Shown piece by piece: positions 7,446-42,700 of a stretch of 64,000 nt of DNA. The notes below the pieces were generated by a model. That model made no database searches, was not told the DNA's origin, and saw nothing but the letters and a program-made list of their open reading frames with translations. The stretch comes from an uncultured Rhodospirillaceae bacterium (lineage in GTDB: Bacteria; Pseudomonadota; Alphaproteobacteria; Rhodospirillales; UBA2165): positions 78,746 to 142,745 of the forward strand of contig CAZNLR010000003.1 of assembly GCA_964574215.1 (NCBI GenBank), given 5' to 3'. How positions within the stretch are numbered: the first letter of the stretch is position 1; each line of letters begins with the position of its first letter. Position numbers and translations under genes: made by a program.

Positions 7446-7520
7446 TTTTATCTCCCCCGAAATTATTGGATGCGAATTAATTTTTTTGACTTTAGGATAA
7501 TCCAATATAGGGGACAACAA

Positions 7521-8615: not shown

Positions 8616-8740
8616 GAACCTCCAAGAAAATGTTTGGGTTTTGATTGAGTTTCCGTAACCGTGGGGTATTTTACGCAAAACCAATGTATTAATTAATTAC
8701 CATCAATAATCTCTATCAATAATCTTCGGGGGAAGACCAC

Positions 8741-9577: not shown

Positions 9578-9583
9578 GGCGGC

Positions 9584-10333: not shown

Positions 10334-10405
10334 TCTTAAACCTCCCCTTTATCGGCAAAGTTAGAGCGAATCGGATTGGCCGTCCAGCGGCGCAGTATTA
10401 AGCGT

Positions 10406-10708
10406 CTAGTCTTTCTTTTTCCGCTCAACCTTCTTGCGCTTGACCTTTTTGGGATCGGCCGTAATGGGGCGGTAGATTTCAACCCGGTCACCGTGATTGA
10501 GGACCGTATCCAATTTGGCCTCCCTACCGAAAACGCCTACTTTCTGAGCGTCCAAATTAATATCGGTAAATTCCTTGAGGATACCGGATTCATCAATGGC
10601 ATCCATCAAGGTCGCGCCAACAGGCAGCCGAATTTTGATCCAGAGCTGCTTGGCCAGCGTGGCGTGGGCAACGCCTACTGTGATCATGTCCCGCTGCTTG
10701 TCCGTCAT
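10406..10708 (-). CDS. rnfH: RnfH family ubiquitin-like protein
   Basis: 100-aa ORF directly after rnfE with an ATGA overlap. The pattern ITVGVAHA...LPVGATLMDAIDESGIL...VGVFGREAKLDTVLNHGDRVEIYRPITADPK is typical of RnfH/UPF0125. Confidence 0.8.
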   Translation of the reverse strand: MTDKQRDMITVGVAHATLAKQLWIKIRLPVGATLMDAIDESGILKEFTDINLDAQKVGVFGREAKLDTVLNHGDRVEIYRPITADPKKVKRKKVERKKKD

Positions 10709-14624: not shown

Positions 14625-14626
14625 TG

Positions 14627-15202
14627 TCAGGCCGCACTCTTGATTTCGGATGGGGCGTCGGATGGGGATGATGCGGGGGACAAACTCGGTTTCGGCCAGT
14701 GCCAGATCTGCACGGTGACTTCCTCGGGGCGCATTTCGATACACTCCGTCGGACAGATGTCGACACATTTGGTGCAGCCGGTACAGATTTCGCCATAAAC
14801 GGCGTGGATCTGCTTGGGGGCGCCGACAAAAGCGTCGGTGGGGCATTGCTGAAAGCAACGGGTGCAGCCGATGCATAGATCCTCGTTGACGAATGCGACC
14901 ATGGGAACGGATTCTTCAACGGCGCTGAGATCGACTTCGACGCCAAGCTTGCTCGCCAGTTCCGATGCCAGCGCCTTGCCGCCTGGCGGGCACAGGGTAA
15001 CGGCGGCTTGGCCGTCGGCCAGGGCTTCGGCGGCAGGCCGGCATCCGGCGAACCCGCATTGGCCGCACTGACTGCCGGGCAGGCGTTCTTCGATCTCCTC
15101 GATCAATGGGTTGCCGTCGACCTTGAGGTATTTAGCAGCGACACCCAAAAGCCCGCCAAGGACGAGACCCAAAACCGTCAATGTTGCGATTGATGACAGC
15201 AT
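14627..15202 (-). CDS. rnfB: Rnf complex subunit B (ferredoxin-like)
   Basis: The start was moved to the ATG at 15202 (MLSSIATLTVLGLVLGG), preceded by GGGGGGAG. Cys clusters CGQCGFAGCRP, CIGCTRCFQQCP and CTGCTKCVDICP. Confidence 0.9.
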   Translation of the reverse strand: MLSSIATLTVLGLVLGGLLGVAAKYLKVDGNPLIEEIEERLPGSQCGQCGFAGCRPAAEALADGQAAVTLCPPGGKALASELASKLGVEVDLSAVEESVPMVAFVNEDLCIGCTRCFQQCPTDAFVGAPKQIHAVYGEICTGCTKCVDICPTECIEMRPEEVTVQIWHWPKPSLSPASSPSDAPSEIKSAA

Positions 15203-15210
15203 CTCCCCCC

Positions 15211-15792
15211 CTACTTCACCGGCAGGCCCGAAAAGCCCATGAAGGCCAAAGACAACAGACCGGCGACGATGAAACCGATGGGGGCGCCTTCGAAAACGGC
15301 GGGAACATCGGCGAATGACAACCGTTCCCGAAGGCCGGCAAATATTACCATGACCAACGTAAAGCCGAGAGCCGAGCCGACGCCGAACAACAGGCTTTCG
15401 ATAAAGCCGCTTTTCTCCTGAATGTTCAGAAGCGCCACGCCAAGTACCGCGCAGTTGGTGGTTATCAAGGGAAGGAAAATACCCAGCACCTGATAAAGCA
15501 CCGGCGAGATTTTGCGCACCGCCATTTCGGTGAATTGAACCACCGCCGCTATGACCAGAATAAAAGTGAGAATCCGCAAAAAGCCGAGGTCGAAAGGCGC
15601 CAGAAGAACGTGTTCCAACAACCAACTGGACGCCGCCGAAAGGGTCAAGACGAAGGTCGTGGCGAAGCCCATGCCAACCGCCGTGTCGACTTTGTTGGAC
15701 ACACCCATGAACGGACACAGGCCAAGAAATTTGACCAGCACCACATTGTTCACAAGAGCGGTCCCGAGGACCAGAAGAACCAATTCCTGCAT
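15211..15792 (-). CDS. rnfA: Rnf complex subunit A
   Basis: 193-aa polytopic membrane ORF: [34 protein letters not shown]. Confidence 0.9.
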
Positions 15793-16064
15793 GTCGCCCT
15801 TTGACTGTTCAGGTTGTTGCGTTTCCTTTATTCAGTTTCATCTTCCGCTTAATCCTCGGGCGTTTTTTAAACGCCACTCATTATTAATAAGGAATTCGGT
15901 ACCAGAATACCAAATTAGCTAATAAAATGCAAATTTCACCCAATTTGCGGACTAAAATGACATTCTATTGTTCGTAATACAAACATTTTAAATATAAAGC
16001 AATTATTGGTTTATACCTAAACTATTATAATTTTGCAAGCGGCCTGTCTAAAAAGCAGGCGGGA

Positions 16065-17174
16065 CTACAAGGGAGGGCTGAGGACGAGCTTTTTGGGTCC
16101 GTCCTTAGCAAATTCGACCCGCGCTTTCATGGCCGGATTGACGTAGATTGTTCCTTGCTCATCGACCAGGAGAGCGAATTTAATTCTCATTTTCTTGGCA
16201 ATTCGATGCCAGGCAGCCGGACCTGCTACCGTGATGGCGGTCGCGGCGGCATCGGCCGTGGCGCCATTTTCATGGATGACGCTGGCGGAAACGATATGGC
16301 GGACCGGCATTCCGTCCCGGGGATCGATGATGTGGGCGTAGCGGACGCCTTCGTGTTCCCTGAACCGTTGGTAGTTGCCTGACGTATAAATATTCTCATC
16401 GTCCCGCAACCGCACCGAGGCGATGACACCCCAGTTGACCGGGTGCCGGATACCCACTTTCCAAGGCCGGTCTCCCGCACTGCCCCCGGCATTCCCCAGG
16501 GTATTCATATCACCGCCGGCGTTGACGATGGCATTCTCGACGCCGTTGCGCCGCAATATGTCCACCGCCCGGTCCAAGGCGACCCCCTTGGCGAAACCGC
16601 CGAAATCCAGGTGGACAACTGGATTGGTGCTATGGACCATTTCGCCTTCAATAACCACATTTTCCATGGATGGCTTTCTTATAGCCAGGGCCCGAATTTT
16701 TTCCAGGGGTGGTATGGCGCCCTTGGGCATTTCATCGGCATGAAATCCCCAGGCCCCTATCAACGATCCGATCCCCGCATTGAACAAGCCATCGCTCTGG
16801 ATATAAAGGGTCTTGGCCTGCCGGATCAACGGCAGCAAAAAAGGCGATACTTTGGTACTTTTTCCGGCGCTAAAAGCGGCGTTCAACCGGCTTAGTTCAC
16901 CCGGTTTCCAGGCATGCCAATCCTTGTGCATGCGCCGAAATTCCCTATCGACCGCTGAAACGGCCTGCCGCGCCTGATCCTCGTCCACCCCTTTGATGGT
17001 GAAATCGACCAGCGTGCCGAATACGTAAACGGTTTCCTTGTGCTCCTGATCGGCGTCGCTGCACCCGCCGGGCAAAAGGAGACCGGTGATCAATAGGGTG
17101 ATCAAAAGAGTGAAAGTGATCGGCTTTGGTCGGTTAGTCCAGTACACCGCAATCCTCGCCTCTGGAGGGTTCAT
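16065..17174 (-). CDS. apbE: ApbE-family FAD:protein FMN transferase (probable lipoprotein)
   Basis: The start was chosen at the ATG at 17174 (MNPPEARIAV...LLLPGGCSD, a lipobox-like sequence). ApbE blocks FGGFAKGVALDRAV, NAGGD, YTSGNYQRF and HIIDPRDG. Confidence 0.85.
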   Translation of the reverse strand: MNPPEARIAVYWTNRPKPITFTLLITLLITGLLLPGGCSDADQEHKETVYVFGTLVDFTIKGVDEDQARQAVSAVDREFRRMHKDWHAWKPGELSRLNAAFSAGKSTKVSPFLLPLIRQAKTLYIQSDGLFNAGIGSLIGAWGFHADEMPKGAIPPLEKIRALAIRKPSMENVVIEGEMVHSTNPVVHLDFGGFAKGVALDRAVDILRRNGVENAIVNAGGDMNTLGNAGGSAGDRPWKVGIRHPVNWGVIASVRLRDDENIYTSGNYQRFREHEGVRYAHIIDPRDGMPVRHIVSASVIHENGATADAAATAITVAGPAAWHRIAKKMRIKFALLVDEQGTIYVNPAMKARVEFAKDGPKKLVLSPPL

Positions 17175-17604
17175 CAGACGCCGGCCCCAAAACCGTCGGT
17201 GTCGATTGCGCGATGGGCAGGTTTGATCCCGCCAAACCGCGGGCTGCAAACAAACCCAAAATCAATCCAGCGGCGGCGGCTACCGCCACCCACCCGTCCG
17301 GCGCGCCAAGCGAAACCCCCAACGCCGCCGTCAAGATCATCACCGCCAGGGGAATCATGTAAATAATGGAAGCGGCCTTCAAAAGCGCCGATTGCGCAAT
17401 TCCAATTGTAAACCAATCGCCGACTTTCGCTTCAGGTATCGGCGGCGCTTCAAAACTCAGACTCTTATTGCTGAAGGCTTTCGACAAGGTGGAAACGCCG
17501 CAACTCTTGGCCGAAGCGCAGGATGAACAGGCCGACTGGCGCTCGGCGGATAAGACGACACCGCGATCCGTCACCTCGACCACTTGGGCGATGGTTTTAA
17601 CCAT
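17134..17604 (-). CDS. rseC: RseC/MucC-family (SoxR-reducing system) membrane protein
   Basis: The start was chosen at the ATG at 17604 (MVKTIAQVVEVTDRGVVLSAERQSACSSCASAKSCG). It has the Cys-rich N-terminal OB-like part and two C-terminal TM helices typical of RseC. It sits upstream of apbE/rnf. Confidence 0.7.
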   Translation of the reverse strand: MVKTIAQVVEVTDRGVVLSAERQSACSSCASAKSCGVSTLSKAFSNKSLSFEAPPIPEAKVGDWFTIGIAQSALLKAASIIYMIPLAVMILTAALGVSLGAPDGWVAVAAAAGLILGLFAARGLAGSNLPIAQSTPTVLGPASDEPSRGEDCGVLD

Positions 17605-17879
17605 GCTGTCTTCCAAAGAGGGATCGGGACCCGAACCGGGCGTAATTGTTTGCACCAGAATCTCCGCAATAATCATTGCGATGCAGTATAAACCGCCACC
17701 GCCGCCTCACGCTCACTATAGTAGCCGCTCCGTTATTTCAATGGCAAAATCTCTCGCAAAACGCGGCTTGCGCCATAGAAACTTCCCCTCTACCATCCCA
17801 AATTACGAGATGGGCTCGATGACGCGAACGGTATTATAGAGCCAAAGCCAGGCCGAAAACGGAAGGGCGAATAAGAACG

Positions 17880-26008: not shown

Positions 26009-26827
26009 TCAAGCCGCCCGGTGACGCCACCAGAATTTTTCATTGATGGAATAGACCGGCTGGTAGTGGCGGATTTTACGGCTGTCGGCGACGATCTTGA
26101 TCTGGTTGTCGAGGATCAGAATACGGCCTTTTTCATAATAGGCGAGAATGGCGTGACCCACCTTGAGATTTAAATCCTTAACCGCGACGATGCGCAAATT
26201 CTCTGATTTAATGCCGAGATATTTGAGCGCCATATATTTGGCGATGGAATAATCCTCGCAATCGCCAAACCGGGACATGAATTCGCCGGGGGAGGCCCAA
26301 TAGTCCTTTTTTCCCCAGTTTTTGTTGTCTTGGATGTATTTGGACTTATTCATAAATTTGTTGACCGCCTTCACCTGGGTCAAGCGATCTTTGCCCTTGA
26401 GGCTGTCGAGGAACGTCACCCATTTACTGAAGCGTTTTTTGAAGGATGCCATATTGGCCTGTTCTTTGGACATCCGTTCCAGGACCCCGCGCCATTTTTT
26501 AAAGGCTTTAAATTTTGTCGACCGTTTTTCCTTGGTGCCGAAGAGAAGTTCATTCTTATTGTGCCCACCCAATTCCTTGGCGGTCCTGACTGCAGAGGCC
26601 GTCACTGCTTTGCCGCCGCCCCTGGACCGCCGCTTGCTCGAGGACTTGCGGCGGCGTTTTTTGCGGACTTGGATGATATTGGGATTGCCGGTGGTGAGTT
26701 CGGCATTGATGGCGAACATCATGGCGACGGGCCCCGCGGCCACGTCAGGCGAGCCGGTGGCAACCACACCCCCGGCGATGCCCGCACAAAGGGGTAAGAC
26801 CAACAGGCTTTTAGGAATCTTCTTCAA
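26009..26827 (-). CDS. periplasmic transglutaminase-like cysteine protease (BTLCP; LapG family)
   Basis: 272-aa ORF with a TTG start. It has a signal-peptide-like N-terminus and an unusual K/R/S-rich stretch (RKKRRRKSSSKRRSRGGGK). The core is DYWASPGEFMSRFGDCEDYSIAKYMALKYLG...VGHAILAYY...ILILDN...YQPVYSINEKFWW, a Cys-His-Asp arrangement typical of LapG-type proteases. Confidence 0.8.
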   Translation of the reverse strand: MKKIPKSLLVLPLCAGIAGGVVATGSPDVAAGPVAMMFAINAELTTGNPNIIQVRKKRRRKSSSKRRSRGGGKAVTASAVRTAKELGGHNKNELLFGTKEKRSTKFKAFKKWRGVLERMSKEQANMASFKKRFSKWVTFLDSLKGKDRLTQVKAVNKFMNKSKYIQDNKNWGKKDYWASPGEFMSRFGDCEDYSIAKYMALKYLGIKSENLRIVAVKDLNLKVGHAILAYYEKGRILILDNQIKIVADSRKIRHYQPVYSINEKFWWRHRAA

Positions 26828-27054: not shown

Positions 27055-29175
27055 ATGGCTGACGAATCGGCGAAGAACGATAAGGCTGAACAGGAAGCAC
27101 CGGAAGAAACGCCCAAGAGAAAAGTGAATACCATCGTGGCAATCGCCGCCGTTGTCATGCTGGGAATCGTCGGCGCGGGCGTCTATTTCTCATTTCAATT
27201 TGTCGAAAGCGAACGCCTGAGGGCCCTCAACGAATGGCAGATTCGTCTGGGCATCGTCGCCGACAGCCGCGTAGCCGAAGTCAACGAATGGATGGAAATT
27301 AATTTTGATACCATCGCCGAACTGACCGAAAATGCCTCCCTGCAACTCTACATGTCCGAATTGTCGGAAGCCGAGGGAGACTTGGAGAAGGTCGATGACG
27401 CCACGGCCCAGCAAGGCTATTTGAGAAACCTCCTGGTCGCCATGGCGGACCGCAACGGCTTCACGCCGCCGGCGCCGGTCCAGGAAACCAACTCCAATGT
27501 CGAACGCGCCGGTACGGCAGGCATGGCGCTTTTGAGCGCCAACGGCGATCCTATTGTCGTCACGCCGGAAATGCCGCCGCTGTCGGCCAAGCAGCGCACC
27601 GCCATTACCAAGGCCCTCCAGGGAGAGCCGGGGGTGATCGATATGTATAAGGGCGCCACCAACCAGCCCACCATGGGCTTCGCCCTGCCCGTCTATGGCG
27701 TGCAGCAGGAAGCCGGCGCCAAGGGTCTCGGCGTCGCCATCGGTATCAGGGTGATTGAAGAGGATTTGTTTGATCTGCTGAAACAGCCGGGCGACACGTC
27801 GGAATCTGCGGAAACCTACCTGGTCAGAAAGTCGGGCAATGTGGTCGAATATCTGACGCCGTTGAGGGACGGCACCCCGGCGTTAAAACGCACCATGGCC
27901 CTTGAAACCCAGGATCTTGCGGCCGCCTTTGCCTTGGCAACACCGGGCGGATTTGAGATCAAACGCGATTATGCCGGAGAGGAAGTCCTGGTGACATCCC
28001 GCCCCGTTGCCGATCTTCCCTGGGTCCTGGTTCGGAAGATCAGCCGGGCCGAGGCTTTGTCCGCCAACGAGAACCGGTTGCGCACCATCCTGATCGTTTT
28101 CGTGCTGATCATCGTCGGCGTCAGCATTGCCATGATCGCGGTCTGGCGGCACGGCACGTCGCTTCGGGCGGCAGCCGCGGCGGAAAAGTTCCGCGTCGCC
28201 GCAGAACGGTTCGAAAACATCTCGAAGTTCATGCGGGTGATCACCAATAGCCAGCCGACCCATATCGTCGCCGTCGACGGCACCACCACCTATACCTTTT
28301 CCAACGAACCGGCAGCCAAAGCGGCGGGAATCACGCCGGAGGATATGATGGGTAAAACTATGGCCGGGGTGATGGGACCGGTAAAGGCGAAGTATTACGC
28401 CGAGGTGAATAAGGAACTGCTGGCGGAATTCGCCCGGGCCGAAGAACAGGGCATGGAGGATTCCGTCAAAAAGACACGCAAGGCCTATGTGCAGCGCTTT
28501 GAAACCGAAGACGGCGGTATGGAAGTCATCAAATCGGACCACATCCCGCTGCGCGGCGACCGGGATCATCCGCCGGGTATTTTGATGATCATGGACGATA
28601 TTACCGAGTTTTCCATGGAACAGATCAAAAGCGAAAACCGCCTGCGTCAGTTGGTCGGCACCCTGGCCGGGATCGTCGATAAGCGCGATCCCACCACATC
28701 CAGCCGGTCGAACAATATCGGTGAAGTGGCCCGCGCCATCGCCGAAGCCCTGGGCATGGATAAAATCGAGGCGGACACGGCGGAATTCGCCGGCGCCCTT
28801 CGCTATGTGGGATCGATATTGAAAGACAATCATGCTTTGGGCGACAGCGCCGATCTGCTGGAGGACATCGATTTCGAGGGTCCCGTGGTCGACGCCATCC
28901 GCCAATCCGGGGAGAACTTCGATGGCTCGGGTCCGGATGGAATGGAGGGTGACGACATGCTCATGGCGGCCCGGATTGTAACCGTGGCCGATGCGTTCCT
29001 CGCCCTGTGCAATCCCAGCGACGGGTCGTCTGAAATGACATTCGAAGAAGCGGGCAACAAGCTGCTGCTTGAATCGGGCTCCAAGTATGACCGCAAAGCC
29101 GTTACGGCTTTGTTGAATTATCTGGAAAACAGCGGCGGCACCGATAAGTGGGCGGATTTCAACCCCTCCACTTGA
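27055..29175 (+). CDS. inner-membrane sensor: double-Cache-like periplasmic domain, PAS-like domain and a degenerate (catalytically inactive) HD-GYP domain
   Basis: 706-aa ORF with an AGGGGAG RBS. TM1 is IVAIAAVVMLGIVGAGVYFSF, followed by a ~290-aa periplasmic region with Cache-like blocks (PTMGFALPVYG, ETYLVRKSGNVVEYLTPLR, DYAGEEVLVTSRPVADLPWVLV), then TM2 ILIVFVLIIVGVSIAMIAVW. A PAS-like segment follows (HIVAVDG...FSNEPAAKAAGITPEDMMGKT...MDDITEF). The C-terminal ~175 aa align by eye to HD-GYP, with the metal and GYP residues replaced (see findings). Confidence 0.75.
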   Translation: MADESAKNDKAEQEAPEETPKRKVNTIVAIAAVVMLGIVGAGVYFSFQFVESERLRALNEWQIRLGIVADSRVAEVNEWMEINFDTIAELTENASLQLYMSELSEAEGDLEKVDDATAQQGYLRNLLVAMADRNGFTPPAPVQETNSNVERAGTAGMALLSANGDPIVVTPEMPPLSAKQRTAITKALQGEPGVIDMYKGATNQPTMGFALPVYGVQQEAGAKGLGVAIGIRVIEEDLFDLLKQPGDTSESAETYLVRKSGNVVEYLTPLRDGTPALKRTMALETQDLAAAFALATPGGFEIKRDYAGEEVLVTSRPVADLPWVLVRKISRAEALSANENRLRTILIVFVLIIVGVSIAMIAVWRHGTSLRAAAAAEKFRVAAERFENISKFMRVITNSQPTHIVAVDGTTTYTFSNEPAAKAAGITPEDMMGKTMAGVMGPVKAKYYAEVNKELLAEFARAEEQGMEDSVKKTRKAYVQRFETEDGGMEVIKSDHIPLRGDRDHPPGILMIMDDITEFSMEQIKSENRLRQLVGTLAGIVDKRDPTTSSRSNNIGEVARAIAEALGMDKIEADTAEFAGALRYVGSILKDNHALGDSADLLEDIDFEGPVVDAIRQSGENFDGSGPDGMEGDDMLMAARIVTVADAFLALCNPSDGSSEMTFEEAGNKLLLESGSKYDRKAVTALLNYLENSGGTDKWADFNPST

Positions 29176-29316: not shown

Positions 29317-30681
29317 TTGAGGGCGCTTATCAAAGACGGCGAAAAGGGCGCCGCCGTGTTCCGTGGGCTGGGTCTGACGTTGCGCAACAAAGGCAAACTG
29401 ACCGAGGCCGCTGCGTGTTTCCGCCGTGGCCTTGCCGCCGATCCCGAGAATTCGAACATTTTTAATCTCCTCGGCAACACGCTCATCAGGATGAATGATC
29501 TGGAGCGCGCCGCCCGGGCGTTTGAACGGTCGATCGATATTCTGCCCCGGCAGTTGCAGCCTTTTATCTCACTCTCGGCCGTTCAGCGCGCAATGAAAAA
29601 ACCGCAGCTGGCGCGGCGGACCCTGAGGGCCGGCGTCAAGCGGACCCCCCTATTAGTCCGCCCGTGCCGGAATGAACCGAAAGCGCGCGTATTGCGCATC
29701 CGGGGCGTACAGAACGCTTACTACACGCTGGGTCAAAGCCGGGACGGCAGTCCGAAGCTAAAGCTGAGAGGGGGTAATTTCTCCAACCGGTATCTTTGGG
29801 GGCAGGACGATTTCACGACCATCAACTATATGGTCCTGAACGACAACTTGCTTAAGGAGCAGGACCTGCCCGGCTTCGACGTAGCGGTCAACACCATCGC
29901 CGATCCCGATGTCGAAAGCGAAACCTTGCAGACGCTGGCCACCTTCGCCCATCAGAACCCGGACATCAAAATCATCAACGACCCGGTACGGGTCCTGGAA
30001 ACCAGCCGGGACCGCAACTATCGGCGCCTCAAGGACCTTCCTGGTTTCACCATGGGTAAAACGGTTCGTGTACCGGCCGATGACGCGAAGGTCGGCAACC
30101 TGATCGCCCTGGTGGCAAAGGAAAGACTGGCGTTTCCCGTGCTGATCAGGCAGACCGGGACCCATACCGGCCGAACTTTCATTAAGACCGACACCAAAGA
30201 AGAATTCGAGGCCGCCGCCGGCGAACTGGCGGGATCGGAAATATACCTGACCCAGTACATCTCATGTCCCTACCGGGACGACTTTTTCCGGAAAATGCGG
30301 GTGTTCTTCATTGATGGGAAGATTTATCCGGTGGTTCATCACATCGACGGTTTCTGGAACGTCCACGGCTCCAACCGTACCAATTTGATGGCGGAAAACG
30401 ACTGGATGATGGACGTTGAAATATCCTACATGGCCGATCCCGAATCCTTCCTGGAGCCGGACATCTATCAGCGGCTCCAAAGTCTTCATCAATTGATCGG
30501 CCTGGATTTCTTTGGTGTGGATTTCAATATCACCGATGATGGGGACATTTTGATCTACGAGATGAACCCGGCCATGCGCCACGCCCCGGACCACGGCCAG
30601 AACTTCCCCTACCTCCTCCCCTACATGGACAGGATTACCGAAGCTTTCAAACAGATGATCATCGACCGGTCACGGGATTAA
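29317..30681 (+). CDS. TPR-repeat / ATP-grasp (RimK-like ligase fold) protein
   Basis: 454-aa ORF from a TTG. N-terminal TPR units (GLGLTLRNKGKLTEAAACFRRGLAADPEN; LLGNTLIRMNDLERAARAFERSIDILP). The C-terminal half has ATP-grasp-like blocks (FPVLIRQTGTHTGRTF, IYLTQYI, RKMRVFFIDGKIYPVVHHI, GLDFFGVDFNITDDGDILIYEMNPAM). The 5' end is doubtful: the frame is open back to the TGA of the upstream gene. Confidence 0.6.
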   Translation: MRALIKDGEKGAAVFRGLGLTLRNKGKLTEAAACFRRGLAADPENSNIFNLLGNTLIRMNDLERAARAFERSIDILPRQLQPFISLSAVQRAMKKPQLARRTLRAGVKRTPLLVRPCRNEPKARVLRIRGVQNAYYTLGQSRDGSPKLKLRGGNFSNRYLWGQDDFTTINYMVLNDNLLKEQDLPGFDVAVNTIADPDVESETLQTLATFAHQNPDIKIINDPVRVLETSRDRNYRRLKDLPGFTMGKTVRVPADDAKVGNLIALVAKERLAFPVLIRQTGTHTGRTFIKTDTKEEFEAAAGELAGSEIYLTQYISCPYRDDFFRKMRVFFIDGKIYPVVHHIDGFWNVHGSNRTNLMAENDWMMDVEISYMADPESFLEPDIYQRLQSLHQLIGLDFFGVDFNITDDGDILIYEMNPAMRHAPDHGQNFPYLLPYMDRITEAFKQMIIDRSRD

Positions 30682-30732: not shown

Positions 30733-33700
30733 TTAACCGCCAGGTGTATCGATGATGATATTGACCGTGCCGTCGCCGGAATCGGTGACCGAGTAGCCAC
30801 TGCCGACGCTGTCGCGTTCTTCTTCATCCATATCCTTGGCGGCGTCTTTCAGCTTAACCTGGTTACCTTGTTCGCCGTCGGCGCCGATTACGGTAACGAC
30901 AACGTCATCACCGTCGGCAGCGATTTCTATGGAGTCGCCGTCATTGAGATTGATGCCGTCGAAGGTCAGCACATCGCCGTTGTCGAAGTCGTAGACCGTG
31001 TCATCGCCGTCACCGAGGCTGAAGATGAACTCATCGTCGCCGGAACCGCCGTAAAGCTGGTCGTTGCCCTCGCCGCCGATGATCACGTCGTCGCCGCTGC
31101 CGCCGTAGATGACGTCGCCGCCTTCGCCGCCGTCGATATAGTCGACACCGGAGCCGCCGAACAATTCATCGGCACCGCCCTGGCCTTCGATGGTATCATC
31201 ACCGGCACCTCCGAAGAGCTCATCGTCAGCGTCCACATCGGCGTCGGAGTCGTCGTCATCATCCGTATCGGTCCCGACCAATTGATCGTCGGTATCCTCG
31301 CCGAGATTGTCATAATCCTCCGGGTCGCCCAGTTCGACATCGATATCCATGGTCTGGGTCGTGCTGGCCGAATCGCCGTTGGCTTCGGTCGAGGTAGAGG
31401 TTACCGTTAATTCGAAATCGGTGGTTCCTTCCGGCACCGTCATGGACAGTCCGTCAAGATCACCCGGTTCGAGTGTCCAGCTGCCGTCTTCATTTGGCGT
31501 ACCGGCCGACAGGGTCGTACCTTCCGGCAAACCGTCAACGGAGACGGAGATCGACAATGTTTCCGAACCGTCCGTATCGGTCAGCGCCGTTGTGATATCC
31601 AGATCATATTCGATACCGACTTCGTTGGGTGTGAAGTCGAGGGATTCACTGGCCACTTCGACCGGATCTGGCGTGACATCCAAGGTGACGTCATCGAAAT
31701 CGATCTTGGTTTTTTCGTCATCCGTGGTTTTCTTGTTGTTGTAGCCGCCGATCATTACGGTGTGATCGCCCGGCGCCAAATCGCCGAGATCGATGGTGAC
31801 TTCCGTCCAGGCGACATCTCCGTCATAGACGCGGTCGACGTAATCATTACCGCCCACATTGACCAACTGACCATCGATGCTGACCAGCACTTCGGCGTAT
31901 TCGTCGTCTTCATATTTGCTGCTCATATCGATCTTGTAGGAGAAGGTCAGTGAACCGGTGCCGTCTTCATTGACCGTGAAGGTCTGCTCGAAGCCACCGG
32001 ACATATCGGTGATGTCGTCGTCGTCCTGACCACCCAATTGGACACGCATATAACCGTCGTCGCTACGGCGGCCGCCGTCTTTGAACTGTCCCTTGGCGTA
32101 ATCGCCTTCATCGGTGCCGCGGAAGGCGTCATCGGTATAGCTGAAGCCGTCATGGGCGCCATCGGTAAATTCGGCGCTGATCAGGGTTTCAGGCGTCGTT
32201 GAATTGGTCACTGAAATATCCAATTGGATATCACTGGAGTCGCCATCGGCCGGGTTGATCGTCAGATCATCCAGTTGATCGCCGGAAAGTGTCCAAGTGC
32301 CGTCGCCATTATCCGTACCGGCGCTTAAGGTCGCGCCATTGGGAACACCGGATACCGTCACTTCATGGGAAGCGTCCGCCGCTTCCAAGGTTTCCTGAGA
32401 AACCGGCACATCGGTCTCGGCAGAGGTGGACGCAACCAAGGTCGCCGATACATCGAGGGTCGGCGCATCAGCGACACCCGCGACTTCCACGGTTGCCGTC
32501 TGGGCGACGCTCTCCTCGCCATCGGTGATGTTGTAGTTCAACGTCACCTCACCGGAGAAGTTCTCATCGGGCGCATAGGAGTAGTTGCCGTTGGCGTCCG
32601 GGCCGGTCAAGGTGCCTTCACCGTTGTTGACCACCAGATCGGTCACGCTCAGCGCATCGCCGTCGCCGTCGGTCGATCCGGCCAGCAACTGCGCTTCGCT
32701 GATGGTCAGCGTGCCGTCTTCGTTCATGGTGAATTCAGGCGAATCGCCTGCCACCGGCGCTTCATTGGAATTTTCAATTGCTGTGGTAACGGTCGTCGTG
32801 GCGGCATCACCGTTGTCTTCCGTAGACGTAACCGAAACGGTCAAATCAAAATCGCCTGAACCATCTGGCGCCGTAACCGTTAAACCGCTCAACTGATCGG
32901 AAGGAATTTCCCAATCCCCGTCAGAATTCAATGCACCTGCGCTGAAGGTTGCGCCATCGGGCATGCCGTCCATTTCAATGGTAACAGTCGACAGGGACTC
33001 AGATCCATCCGTATCCACCAGCGCCGTAGATATTTCAACGGGGAAGGTGACAACGTCTTCGGCATTTTGGCCGGTTTCGAAATCGATGGAATTGATCAGG
33101 AAATCATCTCCATAGCCCGGGGCAGTGAATACGATCTCGTCAAAAGAGGCGCCATTATCCGCCGACAAGGTAACCGCCGGATCGATACCGTCACTGCCGC
33201 CGACGATCGTTCCTTCACCGACTTTCACACCGTCCTCATAGAGTTCATATACAGCGTCTTCACCGGCATGTTTCCATGCGAAGGAAACGTCGGCGGACGA
33301 TACACTGTCATCGAAAGAAACGATTAACTGTTCGGAAATACCGGCGTCACTGTCGTAGCCAAGCTCGGAATCGGCTCCGGAAGCCTCGCCACTAACGCCA
33401 AAGCCCTGAGGATAGCTATCCTGGACACTGATATTGTCAGCCGAAGCATCCGTCAATTCACCGTTTTCATCGATGGCACGGGCCGTCACGGTGAAACCGT
33501 TATCGGTATTGGTGACATTATCCATGCCGATCGAGACATCAACGGCTTCGCCGCCAACCGTCGATTCGACGCCTTCACCGACCGCGACCGTGAGAGTCGG
33601 CGCATCGGCGACGCCGACCACCGTTACTTCGGCGGTTTGGGCGACGCTTTCTTCGCCATCGGTGACGTTATAATTCAAGGTCACCTCACCGGAGAAATTC

Positions 33701-36700
33701 TCATCAGGCTCATAGGTATAGTTGCCGTTGGCATCCGGTCCGCTCAGCGTTCCTTCTCCGTTGTTTACGGAGAGATCGGTAACGCTGAGTTCATCACCGT
33801 CTGCATCGGTCGAGCCGGCCAGTAATTGAGATTCGCTGATCGTGATCGTACCGTCCTCGTTCATGGTGAACTCGGGCGAATCGCCAGCCACCGGCGCCAC
33901 GTTGACGTCGCCTTCGACCGTCACGGTCAACGCCGCCATATCCGTGCCGCCTTCACCGTCGGAAATGGTATAGGTGAATACGTCTTCGCCGCCGTCAGCC
34001 GTTCCAGGTGTTTCATATTCGACGCCCTGGATCTTGAAGTCGCTCTGGCTGCCCGACATTTGCGTCGCCGTGAAGACCACCGTCTGGAACTCGGCGCCGC
34101 CGGTATCGATGCTCAAGGTGCCGACATTGCTGTTGGCGTGATCGACCGTGTCATTATTGATATCGCCGGTGGCAACCAGATTGCCGTCGGCATCGAATGC
34201 CTGCCACTGCCCCATTTCGCCGGTGGAACCTTCGCCGCTGTAGAGCCGTGAGACGGTAACGTCGGCGCTGGATACACTGGTATCGAAGGTCAAAGCCAGG
34301 GCTTCGCTGTCACCGGAGTTGGGATCATATTCAATCTGGGTTGACGCCTGGGCACCGCCCTGGGTGCCTTCAACGCCCAAACCTTCGCTGGTAACCACTA
34401 CACTGTCGTCGGCCAAGGAGGCATCAAAATTACCGTTGCCGTCCGTAAATGACGTACCGAAATCGAAGGCCGAGATCGACACACCTGCATCGGACCAATC
34501 TCCGGCATCCGAACCGTAACCACCGGCGGTTACCGTTTCGCCGCCGACACCATCTTCTTTTTCATAGGTGTAGGAACCGTCGGTGTTAATGGTCAGCGTA
34601 CCGTGATCACCTTCAATGGTCAGGGAGTCAGAACCTGGATCGAAGCTGTGGGTTTCGCCGTTAAACTCGACCTGGGTGACGCTCAGGGCGTCGCCGTCGG
34701 GATCGCTGTCATTGGTGATGACGCTGCCGTTAATGGTGTCGGCTCCGCCGTCGCCGATTAACGCACTGTCGTCGACCGCGACCGGACCGTCGTTAGTGCC
34801 GTTTACCGTCACCGTGGCGACCGCCGTGTCGGTGCCGCCGGCACCGTCAGAAATCGTATAGGTGATCTCGACATTTTCACTGTCGCCGACACCCATCGCG
34901 TTATAGCTGTCGCCCGGCGTGAAGGTGATAGAACCGTCTTGATTAACGGTCACCGTACCGTCCACGTCGTCAGGCAGGGTGGCGCTGGTAACGCTCAGAT
35001 CGTCGCCGTCGACATCCGTATCGTTGTCCAGGACATTCAGGGTAACGGCAGCGTCTTCGGACGTGCTGCCGCTGTCATCGGCGGCAACCGGGCCGTCATT
35101 GACGGCTTCGACAGTTACAGTAAAGTCCTCGGAGACCGTGGCGATATCGCCGTCCGCCTCTTCCGAGGTCGCCGATAAGGTCATGTTCATTTCGCCATTG
35201 AAATCCTCTGGCGGCAGGACACAGACCAGGTGCAATTGCTCGGGAGAGACCGTCCATTCGCCACCACCAAGATTGGTACCCGGGCTCAAGATCGCACCGT
35301 CGGGAACGTTACTTATGGTGACGCTCAAAGTCTCCGAGCCGTCCGTATCGGTGAGTTCCGCATCCAAGTTCAACTGGGTCCACTGATCTTCTGATCCGGT
35401 TTCGTCGCTGACCACGATCACCGGATCGTCGGCAACGCCCGTGACCGACAAAGTCACCGTCGCCTCGGACGTGCCGCCGTGGCCATCGTCAACGGTGAAG
35501 GTAAAGCTGTCGGTGCCGGAGTAATCTTCATCCGACGTATAGGAGTAGCTGCCGTCCGCATTGACGGTGACAGAACCGTGCGCCGGCCCGCCGTTTTCGG
35601 CGACGGAGAATTCCAGTGTGTCGCCGTCCACATCGGAGGCCTGCAACTGACCGGTAAAGGTGGTGTCTTCCAGCAGATCGCTTTCCGATCCGCCGACCGC
35701 CACCGGGCCGTCGTTGGTGCCGGTCACGGTGACCGTTGCGGTCGCCGTATCGGTGCCGCCTTGGCCGTCGGAAATCGTATAGGTGATTTCGACCGTGGCG
35801 TCTTCTCCGACCGCCAGATCGTTGTAGTTATCCTGCGGATCGAAGGTGAGTGAACCGTCGTCGTTGATGACAACCAAACCAGCGCCGTTGGCGATGGTGG
35901 CGCCCGTTACCAGCAACTGGTTGCCGTCGGCATCGGTGTCGTTGGCCAACACGTTGATGGTCACCGCGCTGTCTTCGTCGGTGGTGGCAATATCGTCAAC
36001 CGCCACGGGCGCGTCGTTTTCGGAATCCACCGTCAGGTTTACGGTCGCCGTGTCTGAACCGCCCTGGCCGTCGCTGATGGTGTAGGTGAATTCGGCCGGG
36101 CCGTTGTAATTGGCTTCGGGGGTAAAGGTCACCGTGCCGTCGTCGTTCAGCGTCACTGTACCATGAGAGGCCGATCCGACATCCGTGATCTCCAGCGTGC
36201 CGCCGTCAATGTCGCTGTCGTTGCTCAGCAAGTCGGAGGCATTCAAGGTTAACGCCGCATCTTCATCCGTGGTGAAACTGTCATCGTTCGCTACCGGCCC
36301 GTCATTGGTGCCGGTTACGGTCACCGTGGCGGTGGCCGTATCGGTACCGCCCGCACCATCGCTGATGGTGTAGGTAATCTCCACCTGCTCCGTCGCGCCC
36401 GGCGCCAGATCATCAAAATCCGTGCCCGGATCGAAATTAACGGTGCCGTCGTCGTTGATGGAAACCGAACCCTGACCGTCGCCGATATTGGCGCTCGTCA
36501 CACTCAGGGTATCACCGTCGATATCCGTATCATTGGCCAAAACGTCGATATCAATGGAGACATTTTCCTGCGTCGCCGCGGCATCGTCCGCCGCTACCGG
36601 GCCGTCATTGACGGCTTCAACGGTTACCGTGAAGTCTTCGGATACCGTCGCTGCATCGCCGTCCGCTTCCGTCGAGGTCACCGACAGACTCAGGTCAATT

Positions 36701-39700
36701 TCGCCGTTGAAGTTGGCCGGCGGCCGGATGCACACCAGGTGCAGTTGCTCGGGCGAAACCGTCCATTCACCGTCGCCCAAATTGGTACCCGGGCTCAGAA
36801 TGGCGCCTTCCGGCACGTTGCTGATGGTGACATCAAGGGTTTCCGAACCGTCCGTATCGACCAGGTCAGTATCCAAATTCAATTGCGTCCACTGGTCTTC
36901 CGCACCCGTCTCGTCGCTCACCACGACGATGGGATCGTCGGCAACACCCGTAACGGACAGGGTTACCGTTGCCGTATCGGTGCCGCCATGACCGTCATCG
37001 ACGGTAAAGGTGAAGCTGTCGGTGCCGGAATAGTTCTCGTCGGCTTGATAGCTGTAGCTGCCGTCCGGATTGATGGTGATGGTACCGTGCTCGGGCCCAC
37101 CGTTCTCGGACAGCGAGAATTCCAGATCGTCACCGTCAGCGTCGGTCGCCTGCAATTGGCCGACAAAGGCCGTGTCTTCCAACAGATCGTCTTCCGCGCC
37201 GCCAATGGCCACCGGAACCTCGTTGGTGGGATCGACATCGATGGTGAAGTCTTTGGAGGCTTCGCCTTCGTTGGACGTCGCCGTCAAGGTCGCACCGATG
37301 GTGCCGGAATAGTCGCCCGGAATATTCAGGCTGAGATCGGCCAGTTCGGCTTCCGTACCGGTCCACACGCCGTCGGTCAGCGTACCCGTGGTAACGCTGG
37401 CGCCGTCGGGCAGGTTGGTGAAGGCCACTTCGATGGATTCATATACTTCCGAACCGTCGGAGTCCGTGATGGACGCCGACAGCCCCAAATCGACCGTCAG
37501 ATCGGCCCCGTCGCCATCATCGTCGCCACCGTCATCATCGGCATCGGCGTCAGCATCGGCGTCAGCATCCGCATCGGAATCATCGTCATCATCCGACGCA
37601 CCGTGGGATTCGACCACAATGGTATCGTCTTCGACGCCAACGTTGACGTCGCCGGTCGCTTCGACCGTAACGGTAAACGTGTCGGAGGCCGTGCCGCCTT
37701 CGTTGCTGGTGACCGTCAGTTCACCGGAGATTTCACCGGACCAGTCGGCGGGCGGCGTGACGGAAAGATTGGATAATTCGTCGGCCGTACCCGTCCAGAC
37801 ACCGTTTTCCAAAGCGCCGGCATTAACCGTCGCGCCATCGGGAAGATCGGTGAAGGCGACTTCTATGCTCTCGAAAGTCTCCGATCCATCACCGTCGGTA
37901 ATCGCGGTCGACAGGTTCAGCGGTATGGCGCCGCCGTCTTCAAAGCCGGAAACATCATCGGCCGCGACGGAAACATCGCCTTCCGGCGTGATGGTCAAAT
38001 TGACGGTCGCCGTATCGGAACCGCCCTGGCCGTCGCTGATGGTATAGGTGAACTGCGCCTCGCCACTGTAATCCTCGTCCGGCGTAAAGGTTACCGTACC
38101 GTTCTCATTCAGCGTTACCGAGCCGTTGGTCGCATTGCCGACACCGGTAATTTCCAACGTGCCGCCGTCGATATCGCCGTCATTGCCCAGAAGATCGGAT
38201 GGGTTCAACGTCAAGGCTGCGTCTTCGGCAAATGTAAAGCTATCCTCTGCTGCCACCGGGCCGTCATTGGTACCGGTGACCGTAACCGTCGCCGTTGCTG
38301 ACGCGGTACCACCCTCACCGTCGCTGATGGTGTAATTGATGACCACGTCTTCCGTTGCACCCGGCGCCAGATCGTCAAAATCCGTACCCGGATCGAAATT
38401 GACCGTGCCATCTTCGTTGATGGAGACTGAGCCTTGGCCTTCGCCATCAATCGTCGCGTCGGTCACCGTCAGATCATCGCCGTCAACATCATAATCATTG
38501 GCCAGCACATCGATATCGATACTGACGTTTTCCGTCGTGTCGTCAAAATCGTTGACCGCCACAGGACCGTCGTTGGTATTGATAACTTCGAGACCATAGG
38601 TGTCGTCGGCTTCCCAACCGGACTGGTCGGTCGCCGTCACCGTGATGTTTAACTCACCGAGATCATCATTGCCGGGAACGCCGGAAATAACACCGGTCTC
38701 GGGATCGATGGAAACCCAATCGGGCAGCGGTGAGCCGTCTTCCAGCTCCGCCGAATAGGTCAGCACATCACCGTCGTCGATATCGATGAAGTTTTGTGAG
38801 GCGTCATAGGAATAAGCGCTATCCTCGCTGATGGTCGCATCGGCAATTTCCGTCGTCAGGACCGGCCCGTCATTGGTGCCGGTGATGGTGATGGTCGCTT
38901 CTTGGACCAACGTACCGCCGTTGCCGTCATCAATAGTATAGGTAAAGGTTTCGGTCGTCGTGTCGCCCACACCCATGTGATTGAACACGGTTTCACCGGT
39001 CGCCGGGTCTACATTCGGCGTATAGGTCACGCTGCCGTCGGCGGCGATTTCGACCGTTCCGTTTTGCGGTTGGGTGTATTCAGTTATCGTATGAGTGTCC
39101 GTCGCATCCGGATCATCAACGGTGATATCGTCAAAGATGTTGAAGGTCGTACCGTCGTCTTCAAGCGTATCACCCTCGGCGCTACCGACGACCGTAAAGC
39201 CGTCATTGGTGCCGTTAATGGTCACCGTGGCGACCGCCGTATCGGTGGCGCCGGCTTCATCGGTAATGGTGTAGGTGATCTCGACGGTTGCTTCCTCGCC
39301 CGCCGCCAAATCGTTATAGGCGTCGCCCGGATCAAAGGTAACGGTACCGTCGTCGTTGATGGTCACCGTACCGTCGGCACCACCTTCGATGACCGCATCA
39401 GACACCGTCAGCTCATCACCATCTAAGTCGTAGTCATTGGCCAACACGTTGATGGTTACCGATGAATCCTCATCGGTGGTCGCACTGTCATCAATTGCGA
39501 TCGGCGCGTCGTTATCCGGATCGAGGCCGATGGTCAGCGTCGCCGTATCGGTGCCGCCGTCGTTATCGGACAACGTATAGGTAAAGACATCCTCGCCGCC
39601 GGAACCGGTGCCCTCATAGTCAACGGAGAACATGAGATCATTGTAATCTTCGTCGCCACCGCCCCAGAGATCTTCAAACCCGATCATCAGTTCGCCGGAA

Positions 39701-42700
39701 TCCTCGTCGACACCCGCATTGGTGTGGGCAACATTGTCTTCGTTCAATTGACCGTCGGTCAGGTTGTTGTCGACCGAATGGAACACATCGGCGCCGTCAA
39801 TTTCGTGGTTGCCGACAGGGTTACCAGCCGGGTTGATCTGCTGAATATTGCCGTTCTCGTCGAACGCCAGCGTATGGTCGGCCGGAATGTTGTCGATCCA
39901 GTCATATTCATTGGCGCCGTTTTTGACGATGAAGAAGCCGAAGGTTTCACCCGGCCCCAAATCGTCAATGGTGAATTGGGATTCACCGGGCACCAAATCG
40001 CCGCCGCTGCCCTCTTGCGAGGCGTCGGCCCAGGCGATCTGTGGGTCAGACGGATTGCCGTCGGCGTCAATTTTGTAATAGCCGACCGTATTGTGATAAC
40101 CGGCAACCTCACCTTGGAAGGTGACGGTGACGGATTCGCCGCCTTCCGGCATGGTCAGGTTTTCCTGGCTCACCTGCACCGGATCGAGGTCTTCCATTTC
40201 CTCCGGATCAACCCAGGTCGGCGTGCCTTCGGCCCAATCATGGTCGAAATCGCCGCCTTCACCTTTTTCGAAGGTGTAGGAACCGTCGCTGTTGATGGTC
40301 AATTCACCGAGATCGCTATCGATGGTCAGTGGGTCTCCATTTTCGGGGAAGGTGTAGGTCACGCCTTCGTAGGTAACGTCAACGATGCTCAATGTATCGC
40401 TGTCGATATCGGTATCCTCGCCGCCTGTTTGGCCGGCAGCGGTAATGATGTTGCCGGAAACCGTATCGCCGAGATCATCGCCAACAACATTTTCATCGTC
40501 GACGGCGTCCGGGTCGTCATTGACCGGATGAACCGTAATACCCGACGTCTGCGGCACATTTGCCGTGCCGTCCGACACGTTATAGGCAAGGTCAACTTCG
40601 CCGTTCCAGTCTTGATCCGGGACAAAGGTGTAAACTCCGTCAACCGGGCCGCTCAACGTTCCCTGACCGCCGGTCACTTCAAGCGAGTTCACACTCAGCT
40701 CATCGCCGTCTATATCGGAGGCGCCTTCCAACAACTGGTCTTCGGTGATGGTGATAACCCCGTCTTCGTTCATTTCGAACGCCGGCGAGGATGAGATCAC
40801 GGGCTCGTCGTTTACCGATGCGACATTGACGTTAAAGCTCTGAGAGGCCGTCCCTTCATTACTGTCGACGGTCAATACGGCACCAAAATCACCATACCAG
40901 TTTTCCGGCGGCGTCACGGAAACACCGGCCAACGCGGCTGCCGACGGAACCGAATAGGTGCCGTCTTCGTTCTGTGTCGCGCCATTGACCACGGCGCCTT
41001 CTGGCAGATTCGTAAAGTCGATTTCTATGGCGCTGAGCGTTTCTGAGCCGTCTGCGTCGGTAATATCAAACGAATCCGTGCTAAGGCCGAGATTAATCGT
41101 CGTATCTTCAGCACCGGTTACGTCCTCAACAGAAACGGTCACATCGCCGGTCGGCGTCACGGTCACGGTAAAGGCGTCAGGCGCGCTTTCACCTTCCGTC
41201 GTTACGGCGACGGCGGAACCGGTGAAGTCACCCGCCCAGTCGTCCGGCGGATTGATGGTTACAGAGTCGATATCGGCAGCCGCAACCGTCAACACGTTAC
41301 CCACCAACGTGCCGCCGGAAACTTCGGTGCCCGCCGGAAATTCACTGTCGAAGGTGATAACCACTTCCGTCAGATTTTCGCCCGCATCGGTGATGATGGC
41401 GTTGAGATCCAGCGCCACATCCGCGCCATCCTCGGCGCCGCTCACGTCGCCGGCAACCATGGTCACGTCGCCCTCCGCACCCACATCAAGCGAGACTGTC
41501 GCGGAACTCGTGCCGCCGTCGCCATCGGAGATCGTATAAGTGAACTGGGCCGGGCCGCTGTAGTCGGGATCCGGTGTAAAGACGATTTCGCCATTGACGA
41601 TTTCGACGGAGCCGTTCTGAGCTTCACTGACACCGGTCACGGTCAGTTCACTGTGCGGCGTATCAATGTCCTCATCATTGGCCAGCAATGTCGCCGGATC
41701 GATGGTCAGGGCATTGTCTTCCGTCGTCGTGAATCCGGAGTCCGCATAGGCCACAGGGTCATCATTGGTGCCCTCAATGGTAATCGTCACCGTTTCCTCA
41801 GCGGTACCGTCAACCGATGTCACCGTGAAGGTTTCCGTCATGGTGTCGCCGACACCCATGGCTTGAACCGCAGGATCATCGTTATCCAGCGAAAAGCTCC
41901 AGTTGCCGTCGGCATCCATAGAAAAGGACCCATGCTCACCGTCAGCTTGATCAACCGCATCAAACAGGCTCTCACCCGTGTCGGGATCGCTGACATTTAA
42001 CACACCGCCAACGTCCAGCACACTATCTTCGACGACCGTTCCCGTATCCGCGCCGGAAATTGTTGCACCGTCATTGGTGCCGGTGACCGTGATGGTCGCC
42101 GTCGCGGTGTCTTCACCTCCATGGCCATCCGAAATTGTATAGGTAACCGTGACAACCTCTTCCTGGCCATCCGGCAAATCGTCAAAGTCGGTGCCCGGTT
42201 CGAAGTGGAGAGTACCGTCTTCGTTGATGGTGACCACGCCCTGTCCGGTGGCCGGGTTGCCGCTGGCGTCCACGATGGTGGCGCTCTCGACGTTCAGTTC
42301 ATCACCGTCAACGTCATAGTCGTTGTCGAGAACATCGATATCGATGGCAACGTTTTCAGTTGTTTCGGCTACATCGTTGATCGCCACTGGGATTTCATTG
42401 GTGGGATCGACCTGGATGGTGAAGTCCTTGGAATCTTCGCCTTCGTTACTGGTCGCCGTCAAGGTGGCACCGATGGTGCCGGAATAGTCGCCTGGGATAT
42501 TCAGGCTGAGATCAGCCAATTCGGCTTCCGTGCCGGACCAGACACCGTCCGTCAACGTACCGGTATTGACGCTGGCGCCATCGGGCAGATTGGTAAAGGC
42601 CACTTCGATGGATTCGTAGACTTCGGAACCGTCCGAATCGGTGATGGCCGAGGACAGACCCAAATCGACTGTCAGGTCGTCGCCGTCACCGACACCGCTG

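Follow-up and report, generated by a model that had tools for sequence, protein, structure and literature searches.

A degenerate HD-GYP domain in a DvhD-type receptor encoded beside a LapG-type protease and a giant RTX adhesin in an uncultured Rhodospirillaceae bacterium

Two couplings of cytoplasmic cyclic di-GMP (c-di-GMP) to the proteolytic release of giant surface adhesins are known, those of LapD and DvhD. LapD of Pseudomonas fluorescens is an inner-membrane receptor with a degenerate c-di-GMP-metabolising domain that controls the periplasmic protease LapG, which cuts a retention-module adhesin at a di-alanine (PMC3032553; PMC5231407). Its analogue DvhD (DVU1020/BfsD) of Nitratidesulfovibrio (Desulfovibrio) vulgaris Hildenborough (PDB 9RBZ, 9RC0 and 9RC2) binds c-di-GMP at ~0.1-0.3 µM via a catalytically dead HD-GYP domain, without hydrolysis, and controls the LapG-like protease DvhG, whose cut at a di-alanine sets giant adhesins free (Karbelkar et al., PNAS 2024, PMC10990149; Font et al., Nat Commun 2026, PMC13090378). 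Here we describe a receptor of 706 residues encoded in a 64-kb stretch (64,000 nucleotides, hereafter the window, whose numbering is used throughout) of contig CAZNLR010000003.1 from an uncultured Rhodospirillaceae bacterium. This receptor is a homologue of DvhD over all three soluble domains, and its HD-GYP domain has lost the metal site and most of the residues that hold c-di-GMP in DvhD, so that it may no longer sense this messenger.

In DvhD, the cytoplasmic module is built around the stalk/HD-GYP dimer as its structural core, and the switch consists of a c-di-GMP-induced splaying of the stalk helices between PAS and HD-GYP (PMC13090378). A degenerate HD-GYP domain as the receptor module of a LapG-type system is already known from these publications of 2024 and 2026 (PMC10990149; PMC13090378), and in the literature that we searched the DvhD paper was alone in combining HD-GYP, dCache, LapG and adhesin. 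The published list of DvhDG homologs includes the marine Alphaproteobacteria Kiloniella, Sneathiella, Pelagibius and Oceanibacterium. The relatives of the present receptor comprise more than 673 sequences. With a confirmed match in 170 species-level genomes, this DvhD type of coupling is common among the Rhodospirillales, marine and other; the named sources of the genomes and loci surveyed are all alphaproteobacterial metagenome-assembled genomes (Rhodospirillales, Thalassospiraceae, Magnetovibrio).

Receptor architecture and the adjoining protease and adhesin genes

As in DvhD, a first transmembrane helix, a dCache domain, a second transmembrane helix, a PAS domain, a stalk and an HD-GYP domain follow one another in the receptor, and the HD and HH motifs of the last domain are lost. 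The following features were delimited, using AlphaFold2 (AF2) models where indicated:

27055..29175 (+), DvhD-type inner-membrane receptor, 706 residues (open reading frame; Pfam dCache_1, PAS and HD_5; family profile)
27118..27207 (+), transmembrane helix 1, residues 22-51 (Kyte-Doolittle peak of 2.5 over windows of 19 residues)
27208..28068 (+), periplasmic dCache domain, residues 52-338 (Pfam dCache_1, E = 4e-10, below the gathering score; AF2 fold match)
28069..28158 (+), transmembrane helix 2, residues 339-368, followed by the strongly conserved juxtamembrane AVWRHGTSLRAAAAAEKF..FENISKFM (hydropathy peak 3.3)
28225..28599 (+), cytoplasmic PAS domain, residues ~391-515 (Pfam PAS_4/PAS, NCBIfam sensory_box; aligned to the DvhD PAS in 9RC0)
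28600..28689 (+), stalk helix joining PAS to HD-GYP, residues 516-545, with R544 as the equivalent of DvhD K520 (AF2 helix 3-29; DvhD stalk alignment)
28642..29172 (+), HD-GYP domain, residues 530-706
28690..29097 (+), degenerate HD-GYP core, residues 546-681 (HD_5, profile alignment, site mapping, AF2 fold)
28843..28848 (+), lid-deletion junction D597/S598, where ~19 residues, with the equivalents of PmGH H250 and DvhD L577/K582, are gone (alignments)
29098..29172 (+), family-specific C-terminal helix and tail, LNYLENSGGTDKWADF plus NPST, with W699 invariant and a tail of 4 residues (invariant columns, tail analysis)

Pfam matched dCache_1 at residues 69-326, PAS at 392-520 and HD_5 at 538-681. 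A full-length family profile aligned to the DvhD PAS/HD-GYP construct 9RC0 in a single stretch (E = 1e-46), and the same sequence search did not recover the DvhD dCache structure 9RC2, which was recovered by fold comparison alone, as the top PDB match (E = 2e-7), with many dCache sensors next, of an AF2 model of the periplasmic part that has moderate confidence (predicted local distance difference test score, pLDDT, of 67) and a poor N-terminal helix. All three soluble domains match DvhD best (9RC2, 9RC0 and 9RBZ), the dCache assignment resting on this model and on the Pfam match below the gathering score. The best-conserved parts of the family, above the HD-GYP domain, are the juxtamembrane segment AVWRHGTSLRAAAAAEKFR..ERFENISKFM (28144..28240, residues ~364-395), with invariant columns W364, R365, H366, G367, S369, R371 and R385-N388, and the PAS strand HIPLRGDRDHPPG, which hints that signalling may be centred there.

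The resemblance to LapD is at the system level only and the receptor is not homologous to it: no LapD_MoxY_N, HAMP, GGDEF or EAL domain was found in the 706 residues at E <= 10 (Pfam/NCBIfam), and the receptor has, unlike LapD, a periplasmic dCache and cytoplasmic PAS and HD-GYP domains. The analogy with degenerate receptor domains such as the EAL of LapD, drawn in an earlier note made from this DNA sequence alone, is nevertheless apt, the receptor being the LapD analogue of a LapG-type protease/adhesin module. In fact, as with the DvhD gene, the receptor gene adjoins the genes of a BTLCP/LapG-type protease and of a giant adhesin of the type I secretion system (T1SS) type, with a retention module and a [T/A/P]AAG motif:

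26009..26827 (-), calcium-dependent cysteine protease of the LapG/DvhG type (BTLCP, Peptidase_C93), whose N-terminus has a signal-like segment (Pfam Peptidase_C93, E = 3e-15)
30733..47721 (-), giant RTX adhesin, 5662 residues, likely the protease substrate (open reading frame; C-terminal HemolysinCabind (RTX) repeats; N-terminal FecR/LapA retention-module matches)
46732..47334 (-), N-terminal retention module of the adhesin, residues ~130-330 (NCBIfam retention_LapA, E = 4e-9, below the cut-off; Pfam FecR, E = 3e-6)
46504..46515 (-), TAAG, residues 403-406 in LEEFETAAGEE, predicted LapG/DvhG di-alanine cleavage site ([T/A/P]AAG consensus, PMC13090378)

The protease matched NCBIfam CystProtLapG at E = 1e-31, below the equivalog cut-off, and it carries the C-H-D triad and the adjacent calcium-binding D-x-E that define BTLCP (GDCEDY, VGHAIL and ILDNQ). 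Our survey covered 80 loci from species-representative genomes and six metagenomic loci: the C93 gene lies divergently upstream of the receptor gene in 51 of the 57 loci with enough flank, giant open reading frames come after the receptor in most, and giant adhesins with Cadherin, Big_9 and RTX domains stand at the equivalent position in homolog loci. The retention module is strongly conserved with that of the adhesin of locus L004. The TAAG follows an acidic segment, and the first 2400 residues of the adhesin contain no second motif of this kind; an identical EFETAAG is present in the adhesin of a distant family member. Unlike the dvh operon, which has a TolC-like gene, the window yielded no T1SS genes, its transporter-candidate open reading frames of at least 150 residues being all housekeeping (Rnf operon, hydantoinases, short-chain dehydrogenases/reductases, RNase G and others), and it holds an extra TPR/ATP-grasp gene between receptor and adhesin. 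No GGDEF or EAL genes were seen in the window.

At adhesin residues ~398-505 (~46200..46530, -), the poly-acidic segment after the retention module has three spaced copies of (E/D)L(E/D)(E/G)FETA(A/S/G)G, the first alone being the consensus TAAG and the others TASG and TAGG; the distant L004 adhesin has a tandem FETAAG/FDTAAG. In locus L004, the protease and receptor genes are separated by the insertion of an IS66 transposase and a DruA (Druantia-like) gene (6362..9876 of that locus).

Loss of metal ligands and of nucleotide contacts

Pfam HD_5 was matched at E = 2.4e-15 with the whole protein and 3.5e-17 with the fragment (57-63 bits against a cut-off of 27.2). A family profile of 30 relatives over the stalk and HD-GYP region matched, among PDB sequences, the DvhD HD-GYP of 9RBZ at E = 6e-46 in one 198-position stretch, with further matches to V-cGAP3 (1e-26), PmGH (5.5e-17), PA4781 (2.5e-13) and Bd1817 (1e-8). 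Since three independent aligners (phmmer, profile hmmsearch and MAFFT L-INS-i) gave one register, we regard it as secure; other registers restoring H..HD..H..HH..D were ruled out, and this formal alignment to characterised HD-GYP proteins supports in substance the by-eye reading of the earlier note, whose four peptide strings were all found at 28642..29172 (+), in frame with the receptor. The AF2 model of residues 516-706 has a mean pLDDT of 82.7, the shortened loop being its one low-confidence part, and its best PDB matches are 9RBZ/9RC0 (template modelling scores of 0.77-0.79; 0.79 for the 9RBZ HD-GYP), ahead of PA4781, PmGH and Bd1817, with fold matches at probability 1.0 to 9RBZ, 4R8Z, 4MCW and 3TM8.

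HD and HH have been stated to be the metal-ligand motifs of HD-GYP domains (PMC13090378). Neither motif is present in any of 119 relatives (0/119). The ligands of PmGH, which we take to be E185, H189, H221, D222, H250, H276, H277 and D305 (numbering of Bellini et al. 2014), each coincide with a residue of the right type in 4MCW. Seven of these eight positions are substituted or deleted in the receptor (T547 for E185, R551 for H189, R583/Y584 for the HD pair H221/D222, S618/G619 for the HH pair H276/H277, and H250, the fifth histidine ligand, inside the ~19-residue deletion at D597/S598), the sole survivor being D646, the equivalent of D305. The lysine of HDxGK is S587. Thus the replacement of the first histidine, of HD by RY and of the lysine by serine, as well as the retention of the scaffold residues RDP, DGSG and ARI..ADAF, were correctly seen in the earlier note, and so was its SGE in place of HHE, in which the two histidines are replaced and the glutamate is kept as E620. 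Its leucine in place of the aspartate of DAxDA is real (L649), but the residue replaced is the second, non-ligand Asp of DxxDA (PmGH D308). The reading of GPD in place of GYP was shifted by one residue: the G and the P of the motif correspond to G626 and P627, and the tyrosine is a one-residue deletion, not a substitution, backed by the downstream register PxG(L/M)xG(D/E) and common to all 119 relatives. With D646 and E620 retained, the claim that every catalytic signature was replaced is overstated, although it stands for seven of the eight ligands, and the lid deletion had been overlooked. H593 (in KDNHAL), considered as a displaced H250 ligand, was rejected, as the sequence alignment pairs it with R569 in the loop of DvhD and not with H250.

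As seven of the eight ligands are absent, phosphodiesterase chemistry is not expected. The fold matches and the lost ligands, together with the absence of c-di-GMP hydrolysis in DvhD, which is the nearest characterised relative and has a similarly stripped metal site (PMC13090378), make a folded but non-hydrolytic domain, as the earlier note had proposed, well supported by alignment and model. D646 and E620 could be taken as remnants of a weakly active or differently metallated phosphodiesterase, but this seems extremely improbable, since nothing is left of the H..HD..H..HH set (six His/Asp/Glu ligands) or of E185, each being absent or deleted, and since DvhD, with two more histidine ligands (the H189 and H250 equivalents), hydrolyses nothing with any metal tested (PMC13090378). 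Relatives carry database names such as 'HD-GYP domain-containing protein (c-di-GMP phosphodiesterase class II)' and 'response regulator RpfG family c-di-GMP phosphodiesterase'. Given that HD and HH occur in no member examined, the enzymatic annotation is wrong for the whole family.

With the catalytic HD-GYP enzymes (PmGH, 4MCW/4MDZ; PA4781, 4R8Z; V-cGAP3, 5Z7C; RpfG) the domain shares the fold, RDP, the E of HHE, DGxG-P and ARI..A(D)xF, and it differs from them in lacking the ligand set E/H, HD, H and HH, in the deleted GYP tyrosine, in a shorter lid and in the loss of the RxY nucleotide-binding motif. The non-canonical HD-GYP of Bd1817 (3TM8, 'HDG"Y"P') and the N-terminal pseudo-HD-GYP of V-cGAP3, both weaker matches, likewise lack some of the signature and are considered regulatory; unlike the receptor, they are soluble, have other partner domains and no coupling to a LapG-type protease, and Bd1817 keeps its metal site. 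PA2572, with 'YN-GYP', is another non-canonical HD-GYP protein of this kind.

In DvhD, c-di-GMP is contacted at a canonical site by Y523, L577, K582, Y621, M646, R650, Y652 and E668 and at a bridging site by K520, P567 and R569, and the R650A, P567T and Y652A/R653A replacements each abolish c-di-GMP-dependent stabilisation and dimerisation (PMC13090378). Adding 490 to the chain index of 9RBZ places every named residue on the correct letter. In the receptor, T547 takes the place of Y523, L651 of M646, S655 of R650, G657 of Y652, S658 of R653 and E673 of E668, with L577, K582 and Y621 deleted; at the bridging site, K520 is conservatively replaced by R544, P567 by D591 and R569 by H593. Three of the ten mapped contacts survive (R544, L651 and E673; four of twelve with Y621 and R653 counted) and seven are lost (eight of twelve), so that the canonical site keeps two of its eight residues (L651 and E673) and the binding-critical R650, P567, Y652 and R653 read S655, D591, G657 and S658. 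DvhD, ~26% identical in the HD-GYP domain, keeps the first histidine, the H250-equivalent histidine, the GYP tyrosine and the full lid, and it holds three c-di-GMP per dimer; the receptor lacks both histidines, the tyrosine and ~19 lid residues, and it has in addition the family-specific C-terminal LENxGGxxKW helix. Judged from these residues, the HD-GYP domain probably no longer senses c-di-GMP in the manner of DvhD.

Among 71 complete genomic relatives, 44 retain eight or nine of the ten contacts (pattern RFPELRMRYE; conservative substitutions allowed). The nearest orthologs retain three, like the receptor itself, and the R650-equivalent is hypervariable, reading S, S, E, I, Q and H among the closest relatives. 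In a neighbour-joining tree built from the dCache and PAS regions only, the eroded-pocket forms are a derived clade. The lid deletion of the receptor is shared by orthologs P0001-P0003, L001, L007 and L008. Sisters still carrying the lid (P0006 and P0011) already vary at the R650 and K582 positions, and lid deletions, with boundaries that differ, occur at two or more places in the tree, which we read as the signature of a relaxed constraint on the pocket, followed by deletion. The erosion is stepwise, with the GYP tyrosine lost in all members, then the Y652-equivalent, then R650 and the whole lid, and with the domain under selection throughout. No description of such erosion, of recurrent lid deletion or of the linked ligase gene and tail truncation reported below was found in the literature searched.

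A remodelled pocket could still bind c-di-GMP or a related nucleotide and work the same inside-out switch as DvhD, an alternative that we consider possible but doubtful. DvhD, whose metal site is similarly dead, binds c-di-GMP at ~0.1-0.3 µM, 8-9 of the ten contacts are retained by about half of the relatives, E673, R544, L651, E620 and the DGxG-P loop are kept, and the domain is under purifying selection; nevertheless, the DvhD positions whose mutation abolishes binding are all replaced (R650 by S, P567 by D, Y652/R653 by G/S), Y523 and Y621 are missing, as is the lid that would carry L577/K582, the pocket positions are hypervariable in the closest relatives, and the shortened loop is poorly modelled (low AF2 confidence). 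For these reasons the nucleotide sensor is the weak part of the earlier note, and a docking surface, the other option that it gave and a possible role, is now the likelier of the two.

Selection on the domain and its possible role

Comparison with the two closest orthologs (75% and 72% identity) shows that the HD-GYP domain is still under purifying selection. In its core, the proportion of nonsynonymous differences (pN) is 0.24-0.26 against ~0.75 for synonymous ones (pS), with zero stops or frameshifts; as synonymous sites are saturated, per-domain ratios of nonsynonymous to synonymous divergence (dN/dS) were dropped, and we use only pN << pS, qualitatively, and the relative dN. By the latter the core changes at about double the rate of dCache and PAS (dN of 0.29 against 0.14-0.15), the amino-acid identity to the nearest ortholog being 64% for HD-GYP and 80% for dCache and PAS, and HD-GYP divergence is 1.32 times that of the sensor domains in contact-retaining pairs, against 1.5-1.7 times in eroded pairs. 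DFEGPVV, E620, DGxG, ARIVxVA and the C-terminal LENxGGxxKW helix with its invariant Trp are invariant through the eroded clade, and no truncated or frameshifted copies were found among the 71 complete relatives. The excess of pS over pN and the invariant motifs indicate that what keeps the domain is not catalysis, and probably not DvhD-style nucleotide binding either.

That the domain is the fastest-evolving folded domain of the protein, with repeated internal deletions in the clade, might suggest a vestige nearing loss, with no role beyond not upsetting folding, in a receptor that acts via dCache and PAS only. We find this quite improbable, as pN is about one third of pS, intact copies and the invariant motifs persist throughout, and the cytoplasmic module of DvhD has the stalk/HD-GYP dimer as its core.

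We hypothesize instead, with a probability of roughly 0.55, that the HD-GYP domain is the cytoplasmic output module of an alphaproteobacterial DvhD-type receptor, a lever or docking module that is non-catalytic and probably blind to c-di-GMP, in a locus where the receptor stands beside a LapG-type protease and a giant RTX adhesin. The receptor would be a dimer whose periplasmic dCache restrains or releases the protease, and the protease would clip the adhesin at A404/A405, past the retention module, deciding between surface retention and release. The HD-GYP domain would serve as a dimeric helical scaffold at the base of the stalk, setting the conformation of stalk, PAS and transmembrane helices, and possibly as a docking surface, while the signal, in the re-routed input that we infer along with the loss of binding, would likely enter elsewhere, through the juxtamembrane-PAS unit, the periplasmic dCache or a protein partner.

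Several points weigh against this hypothesis. The loss of c-di-GMP binding is deduced by way of DvhD, whose HD-GYP domain is only ~26% identical. The retained E673 corresponds to DvhD E668, which makes a guanine-specific hydrogen bond, R544 and L651 are also kept, and the invariant E620 and DGxG-P loop could mean a remodelled ligand site. The GYP tyrosine (DvhD Y621) is absent family-wide, yet most members keep the remaining contacts, so that the DvhD contact map may not transfer exactly. In addition, the saturation of synonymous sites (pS 0.6-0.9) makes the selection estimates rough, and the dCache and PAS tree is without support values. If the eroded forms are truly c-di-GMP-blind, they would be natural experiments on the scaffold role of HD-GYP apart from ligand binding, and they would show how adhesin release can uncouple from c-di-GMP.

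The TPR/ATP-grasp gene, the receptor tail and other neighbouring genes

The gene that separates receptor and adhesin in the window is co-oriented with the former and lies directly downstream of it:

29317..30681 (+), TPR and ATP-grasp (RimK/CofF-like) protein (Pfam TPR; weak R2K_3; weak RimK/CofF matches)

Some of its homologs carry PF08443 RimK, and an E-x-N..AMRH motif is conserved; a PDB sequence search with the ATP-grasp half gave TPR matches only. The ligase family is small (84 matches). In the locus survey, the gene is directly downstream of the receptor gene in 14 of the 16 loci whose receptor is without the Y652-equivalent aromatic and in 1 of the 37 with it (Fisher p = 7e-10, not phylogeny-corrected), the carriers being L001, L002, L006-L012, L014, L017, L019, L021, L029 and L035. 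Receptor tails, scored in 43 loci, follow a similar division: all 14 scored receptors beside the gene end exactly 4 residues past the invariant W..F motif, with almost no acidic residues (NPST, 29161..29172, in the present receptor), and all 29 without it have tails of 5-31 residues, mostly acidic (RE.PE type). This pattern suggests that the ligase and the C-terminus of the receptor are connected.

A dedicated receptor accessory was rejected as a description of the TPR/ATP-grasp protein, because distant homologs (<=44% identity) occur in unrelated neighbourhoods, so that the ligase was recruited to a subset of loci and not co-inherited throughout. That the ligase acts on or binds the receptor is speculation. 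In its fullest form, which we hold unlikely, DvhD-type receptors would have dropped c-di-GMP sensing in at least two Rhodospirillales lineages and be controlled instead via the TPR/RimK-like ATP-grasp protein, either by TPR docking on the eroded HD-GYP domain or by post-translational extension of the truncated C-terminus, replacing the encoded acidic tail that receptors without the ligase gene carry; if true, a second-messenger receptor would have been rewired to a protein-ligase input for the control of adhesin release.

Other genes of the window include one for a Sel1-repeat protein (7 repeats, 48061..49002, +), divergent beside the adhesin start; another Sel1 protein, of 967 residues, has its gene close to that of a distant ATP-grasp homolog (L089). 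An Rnf-type electron-transport operon (RnfC, RnfD, FMN-binding RnfG, an Rnf-Nqr subunit and an RnfB-like Fe-S protein), with ApbE and RseC/MucC, occupies 9584..17676 (-). The cluster at the left end of the window encodes a trypsin-like peptidase (27..1133, +), an LVIVD-repeat protein (1146..2270, -) and a 546-aa caspase-domain (Peptidase_C14) protein (4884..6524, +). Two DUF427 (NTP_transf_9) paralogs were found at 4088..4630 (-) and 49994..50842 (-), the second with two domain copies, and in a 253-aa protein (50873..51634, -) some ~130 residues without a family match come before a weak receiver domain (residues 136-220).

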